Assembly: GCA_963663405.2 (NCBI GenBank)
Contig: CAXXSM010000027.1
Location: forward strand, 1 to 61,967
Source of the DNA: a bacterium
Lineage (GTDB): Bacteria > Hinthialibacterota > Hinthialibacteria > Hinthialibacterales > Hinthialibacteraceae
Direction: 5' to 3'
Length of the DNA: 61,967 nt
Below the pieces are notes generated by a model. That model did no database searches. It was not told the origin of the DNA and saw only the letters and a program-made list of their open reading frames with translations. Each line of letters begins with the position of its first letter. Within the stretch, counting starts at the first letter, position 1. Both the position numbers and the translations under genes were made by a program. Shown in pieces: positions 3,049 through 44,275 of this stretch.

Positions 3049-4887
3049 TTATTGACAATCGCCAACAATCCCCAAATCCACAAATTCAACATACATCCAA
3101 TACGGGATTTCCAGCAAATTTACCTGATCGCCTGAATCAATGATAATCGTGATGGGGAGGAATGTGTTGTTTGCGTAATCGGGAAGGTCCTCAGATGGAG
3201 TCATCAACACGGTACTATAAATTGATGAAGCGAGTGAGTTATCCCATGAGATGTACCCTCCACTGCTGATCCCGTCCCCTCCAATGTCAGGCGCCTCTCC
3301 ATTAAACAAGAGTTTCCAGATCACCGCCTGGATTACGTTACGATGAACGCCAATATAAGAGCCATAGCGGTAATTGACTAACAAGTAATTCACTAATTTA
3401 AAATTCTCTGGATTGCCAACCAGGGAACATACATCCGTCTCAGAAGTGTAAATCCCAATATTATTATACCACACGCCCAGTTGAATTTTTGTAAGCATAT
3501 CCGCGCACCAGGCGGGATACGTTTCTTCACCCCCCAAAGCCGTCGCAGGAATGAACTGCGCGTCGAAATAACTTCCATTTATTTTCCCCGGCCAATACCG
3601 CCTGCCAAATCCATCGCCATTGACAAGGTAACTTGTGTCGATCGACGCGCAATCATATGGCATCAAAGTATTCTGAGGGTAATATATGAATAAACCAATG
3701 CCAATCCGGTTTTGTAGTACAAGAATCGCAGCCCAATCATCGCAGGATAAGTTGTTATATCTTACATCAACGTAATCTCCTGATCCGAGACCCGTATTGG
3801 CGATGAGGCTGAAAATATTCGTTAATTGATTATTATCGCAGTTGAGTTGAGCCAAAGCGGTGTTGTTGGTGACATCCAGGCTGGTCAATTGATTGCTTTT
3901 ACAATTGAGGTGAATCAAAGCTGTGTTGCTGGAGACGTCCAGGCTGGTTAATGGATTTTCATAGCAGTAAATTAAAGTCAAAGCGGTGTTGTGAGATACA
4001 TCCAGACTGGTTAATTGATTGCTGTTGCAGCGGAGTTGAATCAAAGCCGTGTTGTTGGTGACATCCAGACTGGTTAATTGATTTCTGTCGCAGTAGATCA
4101 GAGTCAAAGCGGTGTTGTGAGATACATCCAGACTGGTTAATTGATTCTCGCCGCAGTCGAGTTGAGTCAAAGCGATGTTGCTGGTGACATTCAGGCTGGA
4201 TAATTGATTATTCCAGCAGTGGAATTGAGTCAAAGCCGTGTTTTTGGTCACATCCAGGTTGGTTAATTGATTACTCCAGCAGAGGAATTGAGTCAAATCG
4301 GTGTTGTTGGTGACATCCAGGTTTGTTAATTGATTTCTCCAGCAGTGGAATTGAGTCAAAGCCGTGTTTTTGGTCACATCCAGGTTGGTTAATTGATTGT
4401 CGCTACAGTAGAGTTTATACAAAGCGGTGTTGTTAGTCACATCCAGGCTGGTTAATTGATTGCTTTCGCAATGGAGATTAATCAAAACGGTGTTGTTAGA
4501 GATATCCAGGCTGGTTAATTGATTGCTATCACAATTGAGAGTAACCAAATCTGTATTGTGAGAGATATGCAGGCTGGTTATTTGATTGTTACGGCAGACG
4601 AGTCCCCTTATACCAGTAAAATATTCTATTCCAGTTAAATCACTTATACCAAGTCCATGGCAGTTGAGAACACCCGTCTTCGCCGCCGCATCGGCAGCGG
4701 TGAAATCTCCCCCCATGTAACTCTCAACAAAGCTGAGGAAATTCGTGTCTGGGAAATGGGCGGGATCATTGATGTAGCCCTGCGCAGTAGAAAAATTGGT
4801 CATGAGTACGCTCATAAGCGCCAGTGATACAACAATAATAATCTTTCTCGATCGTTTTCTACATTTCGCGTTTTCTGAAGAAGGCAT
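3049..4887 (-). CDS. Secreted internalin-like leucine-rich repeat protein with C-terminal thioester-like domain
   Basis: 612 aa; N-terminal signal-like segment, cap FPDTNF...ISDLTGIEYF, ~13 repeats of LxCxxNQLTSLDVTNNTALxx; C-terminal WCAD...IQAVIW. Confidence 0.85.
   Translation of the reverse strand: MPSSENAKCRKRSRKIIIVVSLALMSVLMTNFSTAQGYINDPAHFPDTNFLSFVESYMGGDFTAADAAAKTGVLNCHGLGISDLTGIEYFTGIRGLVCRNNQITSLHISHNTDLVTLNCDSNQLTSLDISNNTVLINLHCESNQLTSLDVTNNTALYKLYCSDNQLTNLDVTKNTALTQFHCWRNQLTNLDVTNNTDLTQFLCWSNQLTNLDVTKNTALTQFHCWNNQLSSLNVTSNIALTQLDCGENQLTSLDVSHNTALTLIYCDRNQLTSLDVTNNTALIQLRCNSNQLTSLDVSHNTALTLIYCYENPLTSLDVSSNTALIHLNCKSNQLTSLDVTNNTALAQLNCDNNQLTNIFSLIANTGLGSGDYVDVRYNNLSCDDWAAILVLQNRIGIGLFIYYPQNTLMPYDCASIDTSYLVNGDGFGRRYWPGKINGSYFDAQFIPATALGGEETYPAWCADMLTKIQLGVWYNNIGIYTSETDVCSLVGNPENFKLVNYLLVNYRYGSYIGVHRNVIQAVIWKLLFNGEAPDIGGDGISSGGYISWDNSLASSIYSTVLMTPSEDLPDYANNTFLPITIIIDSGDQVNLLEIPYWMYVEFVDLGIVGDCQ
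3820..4595 (-). repeat. 63-bp coding tandem repeats (21-aa LRR units)
   Basis: Recurrent ACATCCAGGCTGGTTAATTGATT-like motif every 63 nt inside the LRR gene. Confidence 0.85.
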
Positions 4888-6510: not shown

Positions 6511-7024
6511 TCAGCGCTATAAAATACTGAGTGATAAGGGCAAGTAATGACGCTTACGCTGGAGCAATTACTTTTCTCCGTCCTTGCCTTATATCATACA
6601 ACATACGATCACTACAAAATCAACCATAAAAAAACTTGCCGAATGGTTAGTTTTACGAATCGAAGAATTCCTCTTCTAATTTGAACCTTACATTTCGATT
6701 CCGCCGAGAGCAGGAAATCAGGCAAAACAATTGTTGAAGATTTCTCTATATTTAAGTCAGTTCGTAAAGTTATGTTTTTGAGGAAGTTAGGAATGGGCAA
6801 GAATTTTAATTGCGGAACAGAGTAAATTCCTTATGAAAATCAATAATGATGAATAAATAGAGAAAATTTCACGTTGGACGAAGCGGCTCCGCCGCAGAGT
6901 GTCGTACGCCGAATTTTCTAGTTGAACAATCCCCTTGCGAAATCTCCTGAGTTGTCATGTATTTCTTCTGAGAAGGCAGTGGCTGTAAGACTGCCAACCA
7001 CTACTTATTTACAGGAGAAAGATC

Positions 7025-7339
7025 ATGAAATCATTACGGAAACGCATGATCGAAGACATGACGTTAGCAGGACTGAGCGAAGGCACGCAAAAAGCATACG
7101 TCCGAGCCGTCGCCTCATTCGCTCTAGAATTTGATTGCTCGCCAGAATGCATTAGCGAGGAACTCGTCCGGGTCTATTTACTGAATTTGCGAGACGTGAA
7201 GAAAGTCGCTCTCGGAACGTTTCAGGTCCACTACAGCGCGCTGAAATTTCTTTATCAAACCACGCTGGATCTGGGGTGGCCGTTGTTTGCAAAAAAAAGA
7301 TTCGTAAGCCTCGCCAAAAGCGCCTGCCGCATTCATTAA
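7025..7339 (+). CDS. Phage-integrase N-terminal SAM-like domain (N half of recombinase)
   Basis: LRKRMIEDMTLAGLSEGTQKAYVRAV...SALKFLY; RBS AGGAG; overlaps the catalytic ORF in the -1 frame at an A8 tract. Confidence 0.85.
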   Translation: MKSLRKRMIEDMTLAGLSEGTQKAYVRAVASFALEFDCSPECISEELVRVYLLNLRDVKKVALGTFQVHYSALKFLYQTTLDLGWPLFAKKRFVSLAKSACRIH

Positions 7340-7872
7340 CCCATTCCCAAGTTCGCGCCCTCCTGGCCGCCGTCAGGAAAACGCCCTACCGGTTGGCTCT
7401 AACGTTGATGTATGCGTGCGGCCTTCGGACCAGTGAAGTCATCTCTCTTCCGGTGCGGCAGATCGATTCCAACCAAATGAGTTTACGGATTATTGGGAAG
7501 GGCGATAAAGAGCGAATCGTTCCTCTCCCGGACACCTTGTTGGAGCCGATGCGTGAACTCTGGTTGATGCATCGCCATCCCACCTGGCTATTCCCCAACC
7601 AACAAGGCTCCAACCACATTCCCTCATCGACACTCGGCAAAGCGTTTCGCTTGGCCTGTAACGCTACCGGGCTGACAGACGATGTGAAGCCGCATTCGAT
7701 GCGTCATTCGTTTGCCAGCAGATTGCTGGAGAACGGCGAAAGCCTGCGCGTTGTCCAGATTCTTCTCGGCCATTCCAGTATTCGTTCGACACAGATCTAC
7801 ACTCATTTGACTGAGCCGCTTCGCCACGAGGCTCAGGATCGGATCAACGCCGTGTTCGCCGATCTGATGTGA
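7276..7872 (+). CDS. Tyrosine recombinase catalytic domain (C half)
   Basis: All catalytic residues present: GLRTSE (R), GKGDK (K), HSMRH (HxxR), LGHS (H), TQIYTH (Y). Confidence 0.92.
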   Translation: MAVVCKKKIRKPRQKRLPHSLTHSQVRALLAAVRKTPYRLALTLMYACGLRTSEVISLPVRQIDSNQMSLRIIGKGDKERIVPLPDTLLEPMRELWLMHRHPTWLFPNQQGSNHIPSSTLGKAFRLACNATGLTDDVKPHSMRHSFASRLLENGESLRVVQILLGHSSIRSTQIYTHLTEPLRHEAQDRINAVFADLM

Positions 7873-7881
7873 GGAGGAATC

Positions 7882-9048
7882 ATGAATTGCACTTCATCGA
7901 ACCTCGAACTCGGCGATGTGGTTCGCCGGTTTGGCCCGGCCTATATCCGGCAGCAAGGGAAGCGCCTTTTGCCCTCCCAGCGTAAAGCGCTGCACGATAT
8001 CATGGCCTGTCATACGGCGGAACTGGGAGGGCATCGTTATCACTGTCAGGACTGCGGCGAAGACTTCTGGGTGTATCACGGGTGTGGCAATCGATCCTGT
8101 CCGTCCTGTCATTCCCAGGCGATGCGGCAATGGATCGAGAAGCGGGAAGACCAGATGCTTGGCTGCCGTTACTTTCATGTAATCGTAACAGTTCCGCAGT
8201 CTATCCGGGCGGCTTTCTTGGCTCATCAAAAGATTCTCTATGGGTTGCTGATGACGACGGCTGCTTCCTGTATCATGGATCTGATGCGCAATCCCCAAGT
8301 CGTTGGCGGTACCCCGGCGATCCTGGCCGTGCTGCACACTTGGCGGGGAGATCTGGAATTGCATCCACATGTCCATCTGTTGGTCAGCGCCGGCGCCGTG
8401 AGTGAGGACGGCCACTCTTGGATGGAACTCCGCCACCCGAAATGGCTTCTCCATGTGGGAACGCTCAGCTTACTCGTTCGCCGGCGCTTTAAAGAACGGC
8501 TCGAAAAAGCGGCGCCGGAGATCTTCCAAGGCATCGAGACCAAGGTCTGGAATAGAGGCTGGAACTCGTTCTGCAAACCGTATGGCAAAGGCGTGAAAGC
8601 CATCTTGAATTACCTGGGGCGCTATGTCTATCGCATCGCGATCTCCAACCACCGGCTTCTGGCAATGGACGCTACCCACGTGACGTTCCGCTACAAGACC
8701 TTCAAAGAGAAGCATTGGCGAACTCTCCGCTTGCCGGGCGAAGAATTTCTGCGGCGCTTCGTGATGCATGTGCTCCCCCGCGGCTTCCATAAAGTCCGCT
8801 ACTATGGGCTGTGGCATCACTGTCATCGGGACACACGCAATCGAATCCGTTTGCTCCTCGCCCCCAAGGCGGAGAGCGTTTCTATTCCCGAATCGGTTGA
8901 GAATTCCATCGTTTCAAAAGAGACCAACGACAAAGCAGTATTCGATCGGACCGGCCAAGAATCGGCGCCGGAATGGCCTAAATGTCCGCGTTGCAAAAGC
9001 TGTAACGTGATTGTCATTGAAACCCTCAATCGGAATCGAAGCCCCTGA
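7882..9048 (+). CDS. IS91-family Y2/HUH rolling-circle transposase
   Basis: N-terminal Zn domain CQDCG...CGNRSCPSC, LHTW...HPHVH (HUH), YLGRY (YxxxY), HVLPRGFHKVRYYG, C-terminal CPRC; RBS GAGGAGG. Confidence 0.93.
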   Translation: MNCTSSNLELGDVVRRFGPAYIRQQGKRLLPSQRKALHDIMACHTAELGGHRYHCQDCGEDFWVYHGCGNRSCPSCHSQAMRQWIEKREDQMLGCRYFHVIVTVPQSIRAAFLAHQKILYGLLMTTAASCIMDLMRNPQVVGGTPAILAVLHTWRGDLELHPHVHLLVSAGAVSEDGHSWMELRHPKWLLHVGTLSLLVRRRFKERLEKAAPEIFQGIETKVWNRGWNSFCKPYGKGVKAILNYLGRYVYRIAISNHRLLAMDATHVTFRYKTFKEKHWRTLRLPGEEFLRRFVMHVLPRGFHKVRYYGLWHHCHRDTRNRIRLLLAPKAESVSIPESVENSIVSKETNDKAVFDRTGQESAPEWPKCPRCKSCNVIVIETLNRNRSP

Positions 9049-9243
9049 TCGATTCCGATTGTAAGCATCGCGATGGTAATATAAAGAAATTATAACTTTA
9101 CGCGGGAAGATTTTTTACTTTTCTTGCCGTGAGGGGATTTCTATAGCTTCAAGAGGATTTTCTCTTTCTAAACTATCAACTTCTCTTCCTCAATTAAGCC
9201 GTTTCGCGAATAAATGGCGTGTTATTGGTTCTCACATTCCCCC

Positions 9244-9302
9244 CGCACTTCGTCCAATAGAGTTTGTATCTCGGCTTCGCTCGATAAAAACTCCTATCTA
9301 TT
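9244..9302 (+). other. Right-end imperfect hairpin (attC-like / oriIS candidate)
   Basis: CTTCGTCCAATAG (9248-9260) is the reverse complement of right end + left end (CTA+TTGGACGAAG); inner arms AGTTTGTATC/GATAAAAACT; identical in all three copies. Confidence 0.7.
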
Positions 9303-35094: not shown

Positions 35095-38000
35095 TCAACC
35101 AAAACATACAACTTGCCCGTCCTTCAATGTGAGAATGATCCGTCCCTCGTGGTCCACTGCCAGCCCCCAAGACACGGGAGGAGCTGGTAGGGGATGTGAC
35201 CAGAGGATCGAACCATCCTGGATACGCAACGCGGTTACTTCGGTTTGTGTCGCGACAATCACCGCATTATCCGTGGCCGCGCAGGCGGCGCTTTCAGGAC
35301 ACTCGTATTCCCAGACTGGCTTCTCGGTAACTGCGAGTTCGCCCCACGTGGGGATCATATACGTCGCGTGCTCCCTATCCCTGACACTCTTGTTCAATAG
35401 TTCCTTCGTGATGGGCTTGTAGCACATGACCTTCTTATTATCCTTCCAGGCCACATCCCAATACGAGGTAGACACGAGGAGTGTCTTTTTCGCTGTTGTT
35501 GGATCGATTGTTGGATATTCGGGATCACCGTAATATGGCTGACCACAAGCCACAACTTTATCCCCGATCAAGAAGAGTTCACTACCACGGGGGCGCGGAC
35601 GATTCACACCGTTGAAGAGTATCAGATTCATTCAAACAGGCGCCATCGGCAAGATTATATACAGCCGGGGAAAGTGAGGAGCCGCCAGGTAAATACAGTT
35701 TGTGGTCATTAATCAGCATAGGGCCTTGAACGCTGATCCCCGTTCGCGCCGCTTGATCCAGGTGTCCAGATACGCTGTTTTGCCAACGGAGCGCGCCTGT
35801 AGCGGCGTCGAGCGCATACACGTATGTGCCATCGTAATTAACAATCCCGGCGGCAAAATACGCGATCCCATCATCCACCCGCACTCCACTGGCCACAGGC
35901 CAGGTGGACAGCAACGCGCCATAGACAGGAATCTTGCGCTCTTCCGGAGCGGCGCGAAAACTCCAAAGCCGCCGGCCGGTTTGCGCTTCGAAAGCATACA
36001 CACGCCCGTCTCCAGATCCAACTAATACTCTCCCGTTCCAGACAGTGGGCGATACCCGGACACCCCCTCCAACATAGGCTTTCCATTCGAGTCTTCCCGT
36101 GCGTCCATCAAGAGCGCGGACAATTCCATCCGAGCCACTGAGAAATGTAAGATCCCCCACAGAGACAGGCGCGGTGGGAGTAAAAGCAGCGCGAGGCTCC
36201 GCCCGCCAAAGCGGCGCCGCAGTAGTAGGGATAACAGCGCGTGATCGAGCAGTTCCTTGATTGTTGGCGCGGAACGTGGGCCAATCAGCGGCTGATTCGC
36301 GGAGTGGTTCAACTTCCAGAACGCCGCTTGCAGGCGCTTCGCGGCGCTCCGTATCGTTCACCTCTGGATTGAAATCGAAATCTCCCGCCGGTCCCAGACA
36401 GGTTAAGCCATAGAGCGTCAATTGACAGTCACACACCGAAGGCCACCAGTAAAGAAGGCCGTTCGCGATCGTGACTCCATCATGACAGTTGGGCCGCATC
36501 GGCGAGACCCAATGTCTCCGGCTTGTCTCCAAATCAAATCGGGTAGTGCCGCCCATCGCCCGAAAGAAGATCGCGTCCACCGAGCCATTCGGCCGTGTAC
36601 AGGCTCGGCGGCCGATATCGAGTTCGGCTAGGACTTCCCCCGTCAAAGGATCAAATCTCCGGCTGAAGTTGTTTCCCCAGGGACCGCTGATTCCATACAG
36701 CCCATCCTCCCGGAGCACCAACTGGAAATTGTCGTAGGGATATTCCCACAAAACGGTACCATTCTTTGCTGACACAGCAACGAGCTTCTGAATTTGCGGA
36801 CCAGCGAAATACAAAAACGTCATCGCTGCACTTCAAATACACCGTAGTGCGCCAGTTTGTCTGCCATCCTTGCCGGTGCGAATACTTGCCAAGTGCGGCA
36901 AAGAGGGCAGGAGCGTTCTCCGGCGTCTTTCTCCAGACGGGTTTTCCCGTTTCCGCATCGACGCAAGTCAGGAACGAGCCGAATCGAAACAAATAAATGC
37001 GGCCATTTTTCATGCAGGCCGCCCGGCTGTCCGCTGATTCAGATTCGCGATAACTCCATAAGACGCGGTTCGTGACGGGATCAATAGCGATAAGATTTTT
37101 CCCAAATCCCCAAGGATTTTCCGGTTGATTGAATCCTTTCGACACACGATCCCACGGCCAGCCATGCGCATCCCGGCGGCTTCGCTCGATCGGGTCCTTA
37201 GGCTCCTGGACGCCAATGAGCGCATAGAGCACACCATCCTCCAAAGCCATCCACTTCCAAAAGGTCCCTCCTGCGAGATCGGCGGGAGGGATGATCTCAT
37301 CGAGTAGTTTACCGGTTTCCGCATCGAAAACCTTGCAGGACATATCATCCCCCACATACAGCGCTTTCGGCGTTGCGATCATTGTATTGCGATGGATCAT
37401 AATGCCCGACACCAGCGGACGCTTCCACAGCAACGTCCCGTTATAGCCATTGAACGCCACCAGGGTATTCAGCAAAGACTCTTCCCGTTTCTTAAAGGCG
37501 ATATGACCGAACGCTTTGAACACACGGCCAGCCGACGCGACCGCCACTTGTGGCATGGGGGCGTAATAAGGCTCCGCAAGAAATTGGGTCAAGTAGGGAA
37601 ACCGCGCAACGCGATCGTTGGATTGAGGATTATTGTCAGGGCCATGATAGGGATGAGACCAATCGTCGATCCCGTCAGGAAAAGGCTTACTCCACACCTC
37701 ATCCCGGACAAGGGCTTTCCCCTGCGGCCGCAGGACACGAAGCGCCTCTTCCCGGTTGATATCTTGCCCATCCCCCACCGCGATGAGCGCATCCGCGATG
37801 TTGTCCGCCAAATGCAAATGAGTAAGCGAGCCTTTCTCGACGAAAATCCGATTGCCATAAAATCCCGCAACGTCGGCCGCATGGGACGCCGCTTCCACAT
37901 CTTCATCCCCGCGGCAATTGCACGTAAAGAATCAATTCGCTTGCTTCAGTAAGCCGTATAGCCAGATCACATCGAGAATCGCCAAGAACAACACAGATCC

Positions 38001-38190: not shown

Positions 38191-38892
38191 AACAATCGAT
38201 CAAGTACTATTTTAGAAAGGAATTAATCCACTTTTAGATCTTGAAATCGGGAGACAAATTTGATAGGGAATGAATGATCCGGAATGAGGCCAAAAACCTT
38301 GTTCCGGTGATTTCAACCCTGTCCAAGGCTGATCAAATACAGCCGAAATCAAGATAGAGACATTTCTACTCTACAAGTATAAAGTGAAACCTGTGAAACA
38401 AGCAATTATAACGGTAAAAAGAGAATGTGATTATTCCATTCATCCTGTTTGCTGCAGGTAATAAGCAAAGCGAGATCGTTAAGCGTCTGTTTCAAATGCG
38501 CATGACACGGGATTTCAATTACACCTGGCATGAAAAGTCCTCCGCGTACGCGTTCGTAGGCATATCGAGTGATTGTGGTAATGTCATGCGTCAATAATAG
38601 ATAGGAGTTTTTATCGAGCGAAGCCGAGATACAAACTCTATTGGACGAAGTGCGGGGGGAATGTGAGAACCAATAACACGCCATTTATTCGCGAAACGGC
38701 TTAATTGAGGAAGAGAAGTTGATAGTTTAGAAAGAGAAAATCCTCTTGAAGCTATAGAAATCCCCTCACGGCAAGAAAAGTAAAAAATCTTCCCGCGTAA
38801 AGTTATAATTTCTTTATATTACCATCGCGATGCTTACAATCGGAATCGATCAGGGGCTTCGATTCCGATTGAGGGTTTCAATGACAATCACG

Positions 38893-40017
38893 TTACAGCT
38901 TTTGCAAACGCGGACATTTAGGCCATTCCGGCGCCGATTCTTGGCCGGTCCGATCGAATACTGCTTTGTCGTTGGTCTCTTTTGAAACGATGGAATTCTC
39001 AACCGATTCGGGAATAGAAACGCTCTCCGCCTTGGGGGCGAGGAGCAAACGGATTCGATTGCGTGTGTCCCGATGACAGTGATGCCACAGCCCATAGTAG
39101 CGGACTTTATGGAAGCCGCGGGGGAGCACATGCATCACGAAGCGCCGCAGAAATTCTTCGCCCGGCAAGCGGAGAGTTCGCCAATGCTTCTCTTTGAAGG
39201 TCTTGTAGCGGAACGTCACGTGGGTAGCGTCCATTGCCAGAAGCCGGTGGTTGGAGATCGCGATGCGATAGACATAGCGCCCCAGGTAATTCAAGATGGC
39301 TTTCACGCCTTTGCCATACGGTTTGCAGAACGAGTTCCAGCCTCTATTCCAGACCTTGGTCTCGATGCCTTGGAAGATCTCCGGCGCCGCTTTTTCGAGC
39401 CGTTCTTTAAAGCGCCGGCGAACGAGTAAGCTGAGCGTTCCCACATGGAGAAGCCATTTCGGGTGGCGGAGTTCCATCCAAGAGTGGCCGTCCTCACTCA
39501 CGGCGCCGGCGCTGACCAACAGATGGACATGTGGATGCAATTCCAGATCTCCCCGCCAAGTGTGCAGCACGGCCAGGATCGCCGGGGTACCGCCAACGAC
39601 TTGGGGATTGCGCATCAGATCCATGATACAGGAAGCAGCCGTCGTCATCAGCAACCCATAGAGAATCTTTTGATGAGCCAAGAAAGCCGCCCGGATAGAC
39701 TGCGGAACTGTTACGATTACATGAAAGTAACGGCAGCCAAGCATCTGGTCTTCCCGCTTCTCGATCCATTGCCGCATCGCCTGGGAATGACAGGACGGAC
39801 AGGATCGATTGCCACACCCGTGATACACCCAGAAGTCTTCGCCGCAGTCCTGACAGTGATAACGATGCCCTCCCAGTTCCGCCGTATGACAGGCCATGAT
39901 ATCGTGCAGCGCTTTACGCTGGGAGGGCAAAAGGCGCTTCCCTTGCTGCCGGATATAGGCCGGGCCAAACCGGCGAACCACATCGCCGAGTTCGAGGTTC
40001 GATGAAGTGCAATTCAT
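38893..40017 (-). CDS. IS91-family Y2 transposase, copy 2 (C-terminus frameshifted)
   Basis: Same protein as 7882-9048 up to CPR, then LQKL*. Confidence 0.9.
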   Translation of the reverse strand: MNCTSSNLELGDVVRRFGPAYIRQQGKRLLPSQRKALHDIMACHTAELGGHRYHCQDCGEDFWVYHGCGNRSCPSCHSQAMRQWIEKREDQMLGCRYFHVIVTVPQSIRAAFLAHQKILYGLLMTTAASCIMDLMRNPQVVGGTPAILAVLHTWRGDLELHPHVHLLVSAGAVSEDGHSWMELRHPKWLLHVGTLSLLVRRRFKERLEKAAPEIFQGIETKVWNRGWNSFCKPYGKGVKAILNYLGRYVYRIAISNHRLLAMDATHVTFRYKTFKEKHWRTLRLPGEEFLRRFVMHVLPRGFHKVRYYGLWHHCHRDTRNRIRLLLAPKAESVSIPESVENSIVSKETNDKAVFDRTGQESAPEWPKCPRLQKL

Positions 40018-40026
40018 GATTCCTCC

Positions 40027-40874
40027 TCACATCAGATCGGCGAACACGGCGTTGATCCGATCCTGAGCCTCGTGGCGAAGCGGCTCAGTCAAATGAGTGT
40101 AGATCTGTGTCGAACGAATACTGGAATGGCCGAGAAGAATCTGGACAACGCGCAGGCTTTCGCCGTTCTCCAGCAATCTGCTGGCAAACGAATGACGCAT
40201 CGAATGCGGCTTCACATCGTCTGTCAGCCCGGTAGCGTTACAGGCCAAGCGAAACGCTTTGCCGAGTGTCGATGAGGGAATGTGGTTGGAGCCTTGTTGG
40301 TTGGGGAATAGCCAGGTGGGATGGCGATGCATCAACCAGAGTTCACGCATCGGCTCCAACAAGGTGTCCGGGAGAGGAACGATTCGCTCTTTATCGCCCT
40401 TCCCAATAATCCGTAAACTCATTTGGTTGGAATCGATCTGCCGCACCGGAAGAGAGATGACTTCACTGGTCCGAAGGCCGCACGCATACATCAACGTTAG
40501 AGCCAACCGGTAGGGCGTTTTCCTGACGGCGGCCAGGAGGGCGCGAACTTGGGAATGGGTTAATGAATGCGGCAGGCGCTTTTGGCGAGGCTTACGAATC
40601 TTTTTTTTGCAAACAACGGCCACCCCAGATCCAGCGTGGTTTGATAAAGAAATTTCAGCGCGCTGTAGTGGACCTGAAACGTTCCGAGAGCGACTTTCTT
40701 CACGTCTCGCAAATTCAGTAAATAGACCCGGACGAGTTCCTCGCTAATGCATTCTGGCGAGCAATCAAATTCTAGAGCGAATGAGGCGACGGCTCGGACG
40801 TATGCTTTTTGCGTGCCTTCGCTCAGTCCTGCTAACGTCATGTCTTCGATCATGCGTTTCCGTAATGATTTCAT
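40027..40874 (-). CDS. Tyrosine recombinase, copy 2 (two ORFs 40560-40874 and 40027-40623 joined at A8)
   Basis: Translations identical to copy 1. Confidence 0.9.
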
Positions 40875-41193
40875 GATCTTTCTCCTGTAAATAAGTAGTG
40901 GTTGGCAGTCTTACAGCCACTGCCTTCTCAGAAGAAATACATGACAACTCAGGAGATTTCGCAAGGGGATTGTTCAACTAGAAAATTCGGCGTACGACAC
41001 TCTGCGGCGGAGCCGCTTCGTCCAATATGCGTTTTTCTGAAGCCGCTCATTCGAGGATGATAGGATCGCTTTCCCCCGTTAATCCCACGTCCTGAATTCG
41101 GACTAAATCGAGGTCTGGAAAACGGTTAAGAAGCGCTCGTACTATTGCTTTGTTGAAATTCTCGTCTGCCGCGAAGCGAAGCATGGCGGTATC

Positions 41194-41523: not shown

Positions 41524-41998
41524 TACTATATCCTCCAACTTTGAAATTCTACTCTAAAATCCAACACAGTTCAAATTCTTTTCGTTCTACTACGAAAAAG
41601 CACTGGAACCGAGCTCAGCCGATTTTTGATCGGCTGTCTATTCTAAAAAGGCTGAAAATCATTGATTATTGCAAGCAAAATATCAGACAAAATCAGCCAA
41701 AATAGATAGGAGTTTTTATCGAGCGAAGCCGAGATACAAACTCTATTGGACGAAGTGCGGGGGGAATGTGAGAACCTATAACACACCATTAATTCGCGAA
41801 ACGGTTCAATTGAGAAAGAGAAGTTGATGGTTTAGAAAGAGAAAATCATCTTGAAACTATAGAAATCCCATCACGGCAAGAAAAGTAAAAAAATCTTCCC
41901 ACGTAAAGTTATAATTTCTTTGTATAGCCATCGCGATGCTTACAATCGGAATCGATCAGGGGCTTCGATTCCGATTGAGGGTTTCAATGACAATCACG

Positions 41999-43123
41999 TT
42001 ACAGCTTTTGCAAACGCGGACATTTAGGCCATTCCGGCGCCGATTCTTGGCCGGTCCGATCGAATACTGCTTTGTCGTTGGTCTCTTTTGAAACGATGGA
42101 ATTCTCAACCGATTCGGGAATAGAAACGCTCTCCGCCTTGGGGGCGAGGAGCAAACGGATTCGATTGCGTGTGTCCCGATGACAGTGATGCCACAGCCCA
42201 TAGTAGCGGACTTTATGGAAGCCGCGGGGGAGCACATGCATCACGAAGCGCCGCAGAAATTCTTCGCCCGGCAAGCGGAGAGTTCGCCAATGCTTCTCTT
42301 TGAAGGTCTTGTAGCGGAACGTCACGTGGGTAGCGTCCATTGCCAGAAGCCGGTGGTTGGAGATCGCGATGCGATAGACATAGCGCCCCAGGTAATTCAA
42401 GATGGCTTTCACGCCTTTGCCATACGGTTTGCAGAACGAGTTCCAGCCTCTATTCCAGACCTTGGTCTCGATGCCTTGGAAGATCTCCGGCGCCGCTTTT
42501 TCGAGCCGTTCTTTAAAGCGCCGGCGAACGAGTAAGCTGAGCGTTCCCACATGGAGAAGCCATTTCGGGTGGCGGAGTTCCATCCAAGAGTGGCCGTCCT
42601 CACTCACGGCGCCGGCGCTGACCAACAGATGGACATGTGGATGCAATTCCAGATCTCCCCGCCAAGTGTGCAGCACGGCCAGGATCGCCGGGGTCCCGCC
42701 AACGACTTGGGGATTGCGCATCAGATCCATGATACAGGAAGCAGCCGTCGTCATCAGCAACCCATAGAGAATCTTTTGATGAGCCAAGAAAGCCGCCCGG
42801 ATAGACTGCGGAACTGTTACGATTACATGAAAGTAACGGCAGCCAAGCATCTGGTCTTCCCGCTTCTCGATCCATTGCCGCATCGCCTGGGAATGACAGG
42901 ACGGACAGGATCGATTGCCACACCCGTGATACACCCAGAAGTCTTCGCCGCAGTCCTGACAGTGATAACGATGCCCTCCCAGTTCCGCCGTATGACAGGC
43001 CATGATATCGTGCAGCGCTTTACGCTGGGAGGGCAAAAGGCGCTTCCCTTGCTGCCGGATATAGGCCGGGCCAAACCGGCGAACCACATCGCCGAGTTCG
43101 AGGTTCGATGAAGTGCAATTCAT
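41999..43123 (-). CDS. IS91-family Y2 transposase, copy 3
   Basis: Protein identical to copy 2. Confidence 0.9.
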   Translation of the reverse strand: MNCTSSNLELGDVVRRFGPAYIRQQGKRLLPSQRKALHDIMACHTAELGGHRYHCQDCGEDFWVYHGCGNRSCPSCHSQAMRQWIEKREDQMLGCRYFHVIVTVPQSIRAAFLAHQKILYGLLMTTAASCIMDLMRNPQVVGGTPAILAVLHTWRGDLELHPHVHLLVSAGAVSEDGHSWMELRHPKWLLHVGTLSLLVRRRFKERLEKAAPEIFQGIETKVWNRGWNSFCKPYGKGVKAILNYLGRYVYRIAISNHRLLAMDATHVTFRYKTFKEKHWRTLRLPGEEFLRRFVMHVLPRGFHKVRYYGLWHHCHRDTRNRIRLLLAPKAESVSIPESVENSIVSKETNDKAVFDRTGQESAPEWPKCPRLQKL

Positions 43124-43132
43124 GATTCCTCC

Positions 43133-43981
43133 TCACATCAGATCGGCGAACACGGCGTTGATCCGATCCTGAGCCTCGTGGCGAAGCGGCTCAGTCAAAT
43201 GAGTGTAGATCTGTGTCGAACGAATACTGGAATGGCCGAGAAGAATCTGGACAACGCGCAGGCTTTCGCCGTTCTCCAGCAATCTGCTGGCAAACGAATG
43301 ACGCATCGAATGCGGCTTCACATCGTCTGTCAGCCCGGTAGCGTTACAGGCCAAGCGAAACGCTTTGCCGAGTGTCGATGAGGGAATGTGGTTGGAGCCT
43401 TGTTGGTTGGGGAATAGCCAGGTGGGATGGCGATGCATCAACCAGAGTTCACGCATCGGCTCCAACAAGGTGTCCGGGAGAGGAACGATTCGCTCTTTAT
43501 CGCCCCTTCCCAATAATCCGTAAACTCATTTGGTTGGAATCGATCTGCCGCACCGGAAGAGAGATGACTTCACTGGTCCGAAGGCCGCACGCATACATCA
43601 ACGTTAGAGCCAACCGGTAGGGCGTTTTCCTGACGGCGGCCAGGAGGGCGCGAACTTGGGAATGGGTTAATGAATGCGGCAGGCGCTTTTGGCGAGGCTT
43701 ACGAATCTTTTTTTTGCAAACAACGGCCACCCCAGATCCAGCGTGGTTTGATAAAGAAATTTCAGCGCGCTGTAGTGGACCTGAAACGTTCCGAGAGCGA
43801 CTTTCTTCACGTCTCGCAAATTCAGTAAATAGACCCGGACGAGTTCCTCGCTAATGCATTCTGGCGAGCAATCAAATTCTAGAGCGAATGAGGCGACGGC
43901 TCGGACGTATGCTTTTTGCGTGCCTTCGCTCAGTCCTGCTAACGTCATGTCTTCGATCATGCGTTTCCGTAATGATTTCAT
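43133..43981 (-). pseudogene. Tyrosine recombinase, copy 3, with extra +1 frameshift at GKG|DK
   Basis: CGCCCCTTCC at 43501-43510 versus CGCCCTTCC in copy 2; may be a sequencing error. Confidence 0.7.
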
Positions 43982-44201
43982 GATCTTTCTCCTGTAAATA
44001 AGTAGTGGTTGGCAGTCTTACAGCCACTGCCTTCTCAGAAGAAATACATGACAACTCAGGAGATTTCGCAAGGGGATTGTTCAACTAGAAAATTCGGCGT
44101 ACGACACTCTGCGGCGGAGCCGCTTCGTCCAATGGATTTTTTACGATTTCTGTACATTTTGGACTGGCTCGTAAATTCATGTTTTTGAGGAGGTTAGAAA
44201 G

Positions 44202-44275
44202 TGGGCCATATAGGAATCGAACCTATAACCTGCCGATTAAGAGTCGGATGCTCTGCCTAGTTGAGCTAATGGCCC
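44202..44275 (-). tRNA. tRNA-Lys (anticodon CTT), CCA not encoded
   Basis: GGGCCATTAGCTCAACTAGGCAGAGCATCCGACTCTTAATCGGCAGGTTATAGGTTCGATTCCTATATGGCCCA: acceptor stem GGGCCAT/ATGGCCC, anticodon loop CTCTTAA, T-loop GTTCGATTC. Confidence 0.93.

Follow-up and report, generated by a model that had tools for sequence, protein, structure and literature searches.

A probable IS91-family insertion sequence with an upstream tyrosine recombinase and a conserved candidate recoding site in a Hinthialibacterota genome

In integrons, attC sites follow the consensus RYYYAAC...G^TTRRRY, and the bottom strand of the site is the one that is recombined. The insertion sequence (IS) IS91 is described in a 2026 report as making no target duplication, using a target tetranucleotide beside its oriIS end and carrying subterminal palindromes at both ends; according to the same report, it forms single- and double-stranded circles, and the bottom-strand circle is the functional substrate, inserted by the transposase TnpA alone (PMC13181058). 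Helitron2 elements carry asymmetric terminal inverted repeats and hairpins, and a description of them proposes that pairing of the repeats sets the endpoint of replication (PMC3627910). Here we analyzed a 61,967-nucleotide (nt) stretch of a Hinthialibacterota genome (contig CAXXSM010000027.1 of assembly GCA_963663405.2), and the whole of this stretch is called the window below. The window holds three copies of one 2427-nt element, of which the genome has about 15, encoding a tyrosine recombinase and, downstream of it, a Y2 transposase. An annotation made earlier from the sequence of the window (the original prediction) had described it as an autonomous, integron-like cassette that the Y2 enzyme releases as a single-stranded circle and the recombinase inserts. 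We read it instead, with a probability of roughly 60%, as an IS91-family insertion sequence of the recombinase-bearing subgroup, whose ends would be made by IS91-type bottom-strand transposition and whose recombinase would be accessory or regulatory.

The boundaries of the element are well defined. Copy 1 lies at 6874-9300 on the forward strand (2427 nt), as given by the alignment of the three copies, by 14 end pairs in the genome and by an empty-site comparison; copy 2 (38598-41025, 2428 nt) and copy 3 (41703-44132, 2430 nt) lie on the reverse strand, in the same orientation and with 677 nt between them. In the alignment, the similarity of the copies begins precisely at TTGGACGAAG and ceases precisely past CCTATCTATT, and the right end of each copy is CCTATCTA, followed by an invariant TT. 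The base preceding TTGGAC is G, A and A in copies 1 to 3, and the bases past the common TT are TCG, ATT and TTG. Because the element itself begins with TT, the TT at 9301-9302 can be assigned to neither element nor target. A 20-nt left-end word and a 23-nt internal word occur three times each in the window, with none expected from 100 shuffles, and a chance origin of the end words was ruled out by the absence of expected matches together with the conservation of the layout in relatives. Alignment and shuffles thus confirm the three predicted copies and their ends. The copies are not equally intact, as the Y2 gene of copies 2 and 3 contains an additional T close to its 3' end, which removes the C-terminal CPxC tail (372 of 388 residues are matched in copy 2), and copy 3 carries in addition an extra G in the catalytic domain of the recombinase and about 20 substitutions in its right non-coding part.

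The genome that contains the window (G000) is 82% complete in 170 contigs. It has 13 matches of full length, besides two interrupted copies and several remnants, with 14 left/right end pairs spaced 2427-2936 nt apart. The copies are dispersed over at least 12 unrelated sites on 10 contigs, each with its own recombinase, and the full 388-amino-acid (aa) Y2 protein is encoded at 13 places. In Logan contigs, the depth of the element was 26-38 and that of its flanks 2, which is in line with about 15 copies and silent on circles. These contigs end at the element termini, and neither a junction nor an empty-site joint is listed among them (four loose ends are not shown).

The Y2 (HUH) transposase is encoded at 7882-9048 on the forward strand and is intact in copy 1. 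It contains the Pfam domains Zn_Tnp_IS91 (PF14319) and Y2_Tnp (PF04986) and scores 343.8 bits against the NCBIfam model NF033538 (transpos_IS91), whose cutoff is 125. In a 34-sequence alignment, the HUH residues H161 and H163, the Y-x3-Y tyrosines Y244 and Y248 and the C-terminal CPxC are invariant, and Pfam found no helicase domain in the 388-aa protein. Its identity to matches on E. coli plasmids, which include IS91, is about 29%. The present element has in common with canonical IS91 and its relatives IS801 and IS1294 a Y2 enzyme of the HUH type that bears a zinc domain at its N terminus, insertion without target duplication, a short target beside the oriIS end, subterminal palindromes at both ends, head-to-tail tandems and a small gene just upstream of tnpA. 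The ends of IS91, read from two copies on an E. coli plasmid, are CGAG TAGGCAGCC-TGGC-GGCTGC... on the left and ...GGGATTTAAATTCCTATCGAT on the right. The palindrome stands 7 nt from the left end of IS91, and the distance to the cleavage site is 7-9 nt across IS91 and the present element. The oriIS terminal motif of IS91, TCCTATCGAT, is similar to TCCTATCTA in the present element, and the right end ...TTCCTATCGAT of IS91 resembles ...CTCCTATCTA. Considering that the cut site, the adjoining motif and the palindromes follow the IS91 pattern and that the catalytic residues of the Y2 enzyme are complete, we assign the ends to this enzyme. The recombinase is not needed to explain them, since the recombinase-less IS91 shares the cut and the motif, the Y2 protein is intact and TnpA alone suffices for IS91.

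The element also differs from IS91. The target is CTTG/GTTC in IS91, whereas it is N^TT with an A-rich stretch here, and the gene upstream of the transposase is Orf121 in IS91, whereas it is a tyrosine recombinase here, with no detectable similarity between the two (E-value 0.62). We had considered Orf121 as a homologue of the N-terminal fragment of the recombinase; at this E-value, and with Pfam hits of Orf121 below threshold, the likeness is positional only. On an E. coli plasmid (L132; CP061246.1, about 35548-37790) IS91 is directly followed by a copy about 90% identical to it, head to tail, the two sharing CGAG, a tandem of the kind found in the present genome.

Both ends of the element are structured. 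The left end (terIS side) begins with an inverted-repeat core, TTGGACGAAGCG, at 6874-6885 on the forward strand, which pairs with its subterminal inverted copy, (CA)CTTCGTCCAA, at 9246-9257 on the same strand. A small hairpin, GCGGC-TCC-GCCGC, at 6883-6895 (+), whose bottom-strand loop is GGA, is present in the fold and reads GCGGC-TTC-GCCGC in relatives. The right end consists of the oriIS hairpin at 9261-9292 (+), with arms at 9261-9270 and 9283-9292 and a loop at 9271-9282 that holds GCTTCGC (GCGAAGC on the bottom strand), followed by the terminal motif at 9293-9300 (+), after whose final A cleavage or joining is predicted. Between the subterminal copy and the hairpin, the TAG at 9258-9260 (+) pairs with the right-end CTA only once the ends are joined. 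As originally predicted, joining produces a perfect 13-nt match, and this can be read directly from the sequence: CTTCGTCCAATAG at 9248-9260 is the exact reverse complement of CTA plus TTGGACGAAG. At position 11 of the subterminal repeat, an A·C mismatch in the top strand corresponds to a G·T wobble in the bottom strand.

The predicted junction also exists in the assembly. A head-to-tail tandem in the genome (contig C118, 28165-30592 and 30593-33019) reads ...CCTATCTA immediately followed by TTGGACGAAG..., so the junction occurs as ordinary contiguous DNA. As single-stranded DNA, this natural junction folds into a stem of 12-13 base pairs (bp), a 5-nt bulge (CCTAT) and a second stem of 10 bp, which contains one G·A mismatch and closes on a 12-nt loop. 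This predicted fold was obtained on both strands, at -15.8 kcal/mol for the top strand (z -4.9) and -15.3 for the bottom strand (z -4.6), and 0 of 200 shuffles were as good. The bulged stem of the original prediction stands in part, in that a bulge exists between two stems; the inner stem has a mismatch and not a bulge. No match of the natural junction to Rfam was found (E-value up to 1; we know of no attC model in the library).

We then compared the ends across relatives. More than 5441 Y2 relatives were found at E-values up to 1e-20 (among 8000 scored). A scan of genome contigs with the single protein found no close relatives, and the Y2 protein was matched in just 2 of 40 other genomes, whereas an alignment-based scan yielded 315 encoding stretches, from which 80 loci were kept. 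The hosts are mostly Planctomycetota metagenome-assembled genomes (MAGs), with some Alphaproteobacteria and other phyla, and in three genomes, each holding three or four copies, comparison of the copies gives the same kind of ends. Both ends were readable in 47 loci, corresponding to 38 distinct elements including that of the window; five loci were dropped for a contig end or an unrecognised terminus. Some loci, among them L067, gave no recombinase match and were considered as recombinase-less relatives; they proved to be 5'-truncated or on cut contigs and are uninformative. The same layout is present in all 38 elements. On the left it is (N)^TTGGAC(G/T)(A/G)A(G/A)CG followed by a small hairpin, and on the right an inverted ...GTCCAA, a 10-16 bp hairpin with the apex CGGCTTCGCG, a terminal motif CTT(A/G)TCT(A/G) or CTTAATTCG, and TT. 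The end structures are conserved down to 34-50% protein identity, and the layout can still be recognised in a Bradyrhizobium plasmid element with 34% Y2 identity.

The covariation that the original prediction called for between the left end and its internal copy is present across the 38 elements. Compensatory changes fall at positions 7, 8 and 10 of the left core, and the core co-varies between clades, reading GAAG, TAAG, TGAA or GGAA with matching partners. The right hairpin co-varies as well: a 13-pair helix is 90.6% paired across 37 sequences, with 10 of the 13 pairs changing on both sides, and slid registers pair at 39-51%. Its covariation score was 0.489 compared with 0.165 for shuffled sequences, and 0 of 500 shuffles scored as high; these figures are inflated by sequence kinship, and the compensatory changes are nonetheless plain in the alignment. 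The mismatch position of the hairpin is non-Watson-Crick in 9 of the 37 sequences. When the deviations from pairing are counted, the 12-bp repeat core shows A·C (hence G·T on the bottom strand) in 14 cells, no unambiguous top-strand G·T and four other mismatches; a 1-nt bulge occurs in one clade of five, and L112 was left out of this count for its doubtful left end. In the hairpin, the top-strand letters give A·C (bottom-strand G·T) in 22 cells, G·T in 3 and other departures in 23. While these cells stem from perhaps 5-7 independent changes, which makes the bias suggestive and not proven, they would fit pairing in a folded bottom strand of single-stranded DNA. Together with the analogy to IS91, this bias supports, though indirectly, the earlier proposal of a folded single-stranded intermediate made by the Y2 enzyme.

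The hairpin had further been described as completed only on circularisation, and this is not supported, as a core of 10-12 bp pairs without the junction. Contiguous pairs at the junction beyond TTGG/CCAA number zero in 13 of the 38 elements, one in 7, two in 11, three in 2 and four in 5, so that three or more occur in only 7. This is above chance, for which about three quarters of elements at zero would be expected. In the elements without extra junction pairs, the three bases past GTCCAA lengthen the hairpin instead. In addition, 26 of 38 integrated left flanks place before TTGGAC a base complementary to the one that follows GTCCAA. Since a third of the elements have no extra pairs and the target, too, supplies the first pair, the core structure is independent of circularisation; judging from this comparison, the perfect 13-nt match is a lineage-specific extension of one branch only.

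Empty sites define how the element inserts. One copy on contig C103 is inserted within another multi-copy repeat family, and six uninterrupted members of that family serve as empty sites. Their sequence is ...ggaaaaagaga^ttttagcag..., with ^ marking where the filled site carries the 2427-nt element. From this comparison, insertion adds exactly 2427 nt and causes no target duplication, with a cut that can be placed anywhere in the shared TT. The members of the repeat family lie on contigs C55, C65, C119, C161, C110 and C103 (for example C65:27934-28013), and the copy that targets one of them, C103:40786-45042, is itself interrupted. Across 12 independent insertions, T occupies position +1 in 12 of 12, +2 in 12 of 12 and +3 in 10 of 12, and A occupies position -1 in 9 of 12 and -8 in 12 of 12, within an A-rich stretch that spans -11 to -7. 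The orientation of the element is fixed relative to the A^TT of the target. The original prediction had the recombinase insert the element at RTT; insertion at N^TT without duplication is borne out, but the role of the recombinase as inserter is not, as the ends fit those of recombinase-less IS91.

Based on the analogy with IS91, transposition would proceed as follows. A nick by the Y2 enzyme would open the bottom strand beside the oriIS hairpin of the right end, at 5'-AA^TAGATAGG, and replication would displace the nicked strand. The displaced left end (terIS: the small hairpin, then TTCGTCCAA^) would pair with the subterminal TTGGACGAAG near the 5' end of the strand. This pairing of the repeats would join the two ends, leading to accurate termination and to closure of a single-stranded circle, which the Y2 enzyme would then insert after a target AA. 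On this reading, the 13-nt hairpin would break down into two parts, a terminal inverted repeat, which is asymmetric, and the hairpin of oriIS. The original prediction had itself raised, as a caveat, that the hairpin could be oriIS, and this is the better-supported reading.

Helitron2 offers a parallel for such a layout. In its description, one repeat lies at the extreme 5' end by or in the 5' hairpin and the other is subterminal, just upstream of the 3' hairpin, and insertion occurs by T-rich sites without target duplication (PMC3627910), all as in the present element. The distance from the subterminal repeat to the end, about 20-30 bp in that text, is about 45 bp here. Helitron2 differs in that it encodes a Rep-helicase fusion, is eukaryotic and has no tyrosine recombinase, whereas the hosts here are bacterial MAGs.

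Several points weigh against the IS91 reading. The 12-bp duplex, with predicted cleavage at its edge (5'-GTCCAA^Y on the bottom strand), would have the geometry of a tyrosine-recombinase half-site and of an integron R box. All recombinase-bearing relatives whose ends could be read, down to 34% Y2 identity, have the asymmetric repeat, which could for this reason be tied to the recombinase; in the one recombinase-less IS91 examined it was not found (best local score 17, A/T-rich). The repeat need not belong to the recombinase, however, since Helitron2 has the same repeats and hairpins and lacks a recombinase. The A-rich stretch of the target lies on the far side of the cut and is not predicted by the IS91 model. 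Furthermore, the recombinase must cut DNA, as its catalytic residues are invariant, and the IS91 reading names no DNA site for that cutting. Lastly, no circle, nick or strand polarity was observed in the read data, which are at contig level only.

A second explanation is that of the original prediction, in which the Y2 enzyme only releases the single-stranded circle, the junction folds into an attC-like structure and the IntI-like recombinase inserts it by one bottom-strand exchange at N^TT. The R box would then correspond to the repeat duplex, the L box to the hairpin and the variable part to the loop. The junction does fold as this explanation predicts, and the wobble bias points to the folded bottom strand, the strand that is recombined in integrons. 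As in integron cassettes, the element starts with TTRRRY, has an RYYYAA(Y) box about 55 nt before its end, is cut at N^TT and goes with an IntI-related recombinase. The consensus RYYYAAC...G^TTRRRY is matched exactly in alphaproteobacterial relatives (GTCCAAC ... TCG^TTGGAC, hence the motifs GTCCAAC / G^TTGGAC) and nearly in the present element (GTCCAAT / A^TTGGAC, as in the C118 tandem junction). The base that follows GTCCAA has its complement just before TT in 25 of 38 junctions, and likewise in the 26 of 38 left flanks given above, where chance would give about a quarter. The invariance of the catalytic residues and the association of the inverted repeat with the recombinase, for which one recombinase-less element was compared, also speak for it, as does the placement of IS91-borne recombinases in an integron-like subgroup, without the IntI insertion, in bioRxiv 10.1101/542381.

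Other evidence, however, runs counter to insertion by the recombinase. Recombinase-less IS91 has the same cut and terminal motif, and its transposase alone inserts the circle (PMC13181058). The Y2 protein keeps both tyrosines, junction pairing past the core is lacking in 13 of the 38 elements, and the likeness of the targets to the supposed R' box is limited to N^TT. The Helitron2 repeat layout needs no recombinase (PMC3627910). The recombinase falls below the cutoff for integron integrases and lacks the IntI insertion. There is no attI site, promoter platform or cassette array here, and the insertions are dispersed; the repeat duplex is 10-28 bp here compared with 7 bp in integrons, and the present element encodes its own rolling-circle enzyme. 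The integron-like character given to the element in the original prediction is therefore not upheld, with an integrase score of 158 bits where 265 are required, dispersed copies and no attI array. We consider attC-like insertion unlikely, and keep it under consideration because of the link between repeat and recombinase, the invariant residues, the kinship to IntI and the exact fit of the alphaproteobacterial motif. The wider claim that recombinase-bearing IS91 elements would be a third system, after attC and the CTX phage, in which a recombinase of the Xer/IntI type acts on a folded single strand, draws on the same motif fit, wobble bias, repeat-recombinase link and invariant residues, and we regard it as quite improbable.

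The recombinase itself is of the Xer/IntI kind and lies upstream of the Y2 gene; Pfam and NCBIfam support the predicted pairing of the two enzymes. Its best NCBIfam matches are all below cutoff (XerA, 175 versus 220 bits; XerD, 148). Against the integron-integrase models it scores 158 versus 265 bits in two stretches (TIGR02249) and 118 versus 435 (NF011946). This two-stretch, sub-cutoff match agrees with the caveat of the original prediction that the recombinase lacks the insertion specific to IntI. Its nearest solved relatives are XerD, IntI4 and XerA. ISAzo26 and ISSod25, which we take to be ISfinder/TnPedia entries of the IS91 family with an upstream phage-integrase-type gene, would have the gene pair and order seen here; ISAzo26 was not found by name in the literature searched. 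The integron-like kinship and the lack of the IntI insertion are shared with the IS91-borne recombinases treated in bioRxiv 10.1101/542381.

The recombinase is not encoded in a single open frame, as the gene is split by a -1 shift at a run of eight A (A8; 7291-7298, +) in all three copies of the window. Frame 0 (7025-7339, +) encodes the N-terminal SAM-like DNA-binding domain (Phage_int_SAM_4, E-value 1.6e-17) and ends after 104 aa if unshifted, and the -1 frame (7276-7872, +) encodes the catalytic domain (Phage_integrase, E-value 8.5e-41); the A8 run that joins them is a candidate frameshift or slippage site. Independent short-read contigs of two runs cover the A8 run without an insertion or deletion, and the split agrees between Illumina-type and long-read assemblies. 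We searched for the recombinase at 82 loci, namely the 80 kept loci plus L032 and L033, and could compare both halves in 63. The catalytic residues R-K-H-R-H-Y are kept in 62-63 of 63 distinct relatives, and judging by this invariance the recombinase is an integral part of the element under selection. A poly-A run with a frame change occurs at the same domain boundary in 55 of the 63 loci. A -1 shift is needed in 43, most of which read ACG AAA AAA AAG and hold the in-frame heptamer A_AAA_AAG, and a +1 shift is needed in 12, which read GGG GAA AAA AAG G. In the remaining 8 the recombinase is in frame, and the A-run is broken there by other lysine or arginine codons.

The conservation of the poly-A split suggests programmed recoding. 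Since both shift directions occur on a poly-A run, we favour transcriptional slippage, and the -1 class could use ribosomal frameshifting as well. The predicted default product would be a 104-aa DNA-binding fragment, with full-length recombinase made only by recoding. The arrangement is like the OrfA/OrfAB recoding and poly-A slippage of IS1 and IS3, where an A-run also stands at a domain boundary, the short product binds DNA and the fusion is the enzyme. It differs in that the recoded gene is here a tyrosine recombinase and not a transposase, and in that both -1 (43 loci) and +1 (12 loci) shifts occur. Slippage in IS genes has been described (PMC1088944), with no mention of IS91, integrase or recombinase in that paper, and in the literature searched for IS91, tyrosine recombinase and frameshift or slippage we found no description of the role of the recombinase in IS91 elements or of its recoding.

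Such an expression pattern enters into a third explanation, in which the recombinase acts on double-stranded by-products of read-through, reducing head-to-tail tandems or double-stranded circles and multimers through the right-end palindrome or the tandem junction in the manner of dif or res, while the abundant N-terminal fragment would be a regulator. A short default product and a rare full enzyme resemble the regulation of IS1 and IS3. The right palindrome of the relatives has near-perfect arms of 13-16 bp around a 6-nt centre, GCTTCG, which is the size of Xer and Cre sites, and resolution of dimers had already been raised as a caveat in the original prediction. Tandems do recur. Apart from that on C118, an exact-pattern junction scan of metagenome contigs gave 16 stretches, of which three (L144, L146 and L149) are true junctions of related elements. 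In L147, the hairpin and terminus stand directly before a left end, with the upstream GTCCAA copy missing; the left ends in L140 and L145 are true but have chance flanks, and another eight stretches are chance matches. L144 and L146 each consist of a partial copy, a full copy and unique flank, the two right ends differing in L146; they are genomic tandems and not proof of circles. On the other hand, the arms of the palindrome vary with compensation and its loop is conserved, which argues for a structure rather than for a site read by a protein in the sequence, and the bottom-strand wobble bias suggests that the hairpin acts as single-stranded DNA. The tandems also persist in genomes. A recombinase role in clearing double-stranded by-products thus appears doubtful, and we retain the IS91 reading, with an accessory or regulatory recombinase, as the preferred one.

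Other observations were made on the relatives and their surroundings. In L141 and L148, which have the same flank, a true left end adjoins ...cccaaaaagtcatatcta^TTGGACG, where the flank is like the last 17 nt of an oriIS end, without the rest; either a copy survives there as a remnant, or the target resembles such an end. The right-terminal 20 nt is duplicated directly outside the element in L120 (2600-2660), and a gtctggttttt unit is likewise repeated downstream in L096; both may be traces of imprecise initiation or of repeated insertion. A circular Sphingomonas plasmid of 4862 bp (L151; NZ_CP155766.1) is annotated with just two genes, an in-frame integrase and an IS91-family transposase (37% Y2 identity); it was considered as an element dimer, which its lack of an internal repeat ruled out. 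In Logan contigs of two runs (X1 and X2), position 7750 directly follows the first 22 nt of the element (6895>7750), so that the recombinase is skipped, at depths of 4.9 and 2.9. No copy with this deletion was found in the assembly, and the joint may reflect a deletion derivative or a chimeric contig.

Around the copies, a tRNA-Lys(CTT) gene lies at 44201-44275 on the reverse strand, 68 nt from the left end of copy 3. Elsewhere in the window, 3760-4689 holds at least 11 tandem units that recur every 63 nt and are 61-79% alike; this array is probably a repeat-containing coding region. On contig C103 of the same genome, 9650-22130 resembles an array of clustered regularly interspaced short palindromic repeats (CRISPR), with a 37-nt repeat, gtatctccttatccctttgtaaggagcggattgaaac, and spacers of about 34 nt. 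The element copy at C103:19126-22061 sits in a spacer of this apparent array and is itself broken, close to its right end, by about 500 nt.

Resistance and virulence genes are mobilised by IS91-type elements, whose mechanism, by way of a bottom-strand single-stranded circle, was pinned down only recently. A large and widespread branch of them pairs the Y2 enzyme with an integron-like recombinase, and the present analysis defines the anatomy of this branch, namely the exact ends, the target, the asymmetric repeat, the covarying hairpin, the strand bias and the conserved recoding site. Action of the recombinase on the folded junction, if it occurs, would link rolling-circle transposons with integrons; otherwise, the element is an ordinary multi-copy insertion sequence. 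Were these elements indeed a third system of that kind, they could be relatives or forerunners of integron cassettes, because their recombinases are the nearest kin of IntI. With its kinship to IntI, the conserved recoding of its gene and the question of its role, the recombinase merits a test at the bench.

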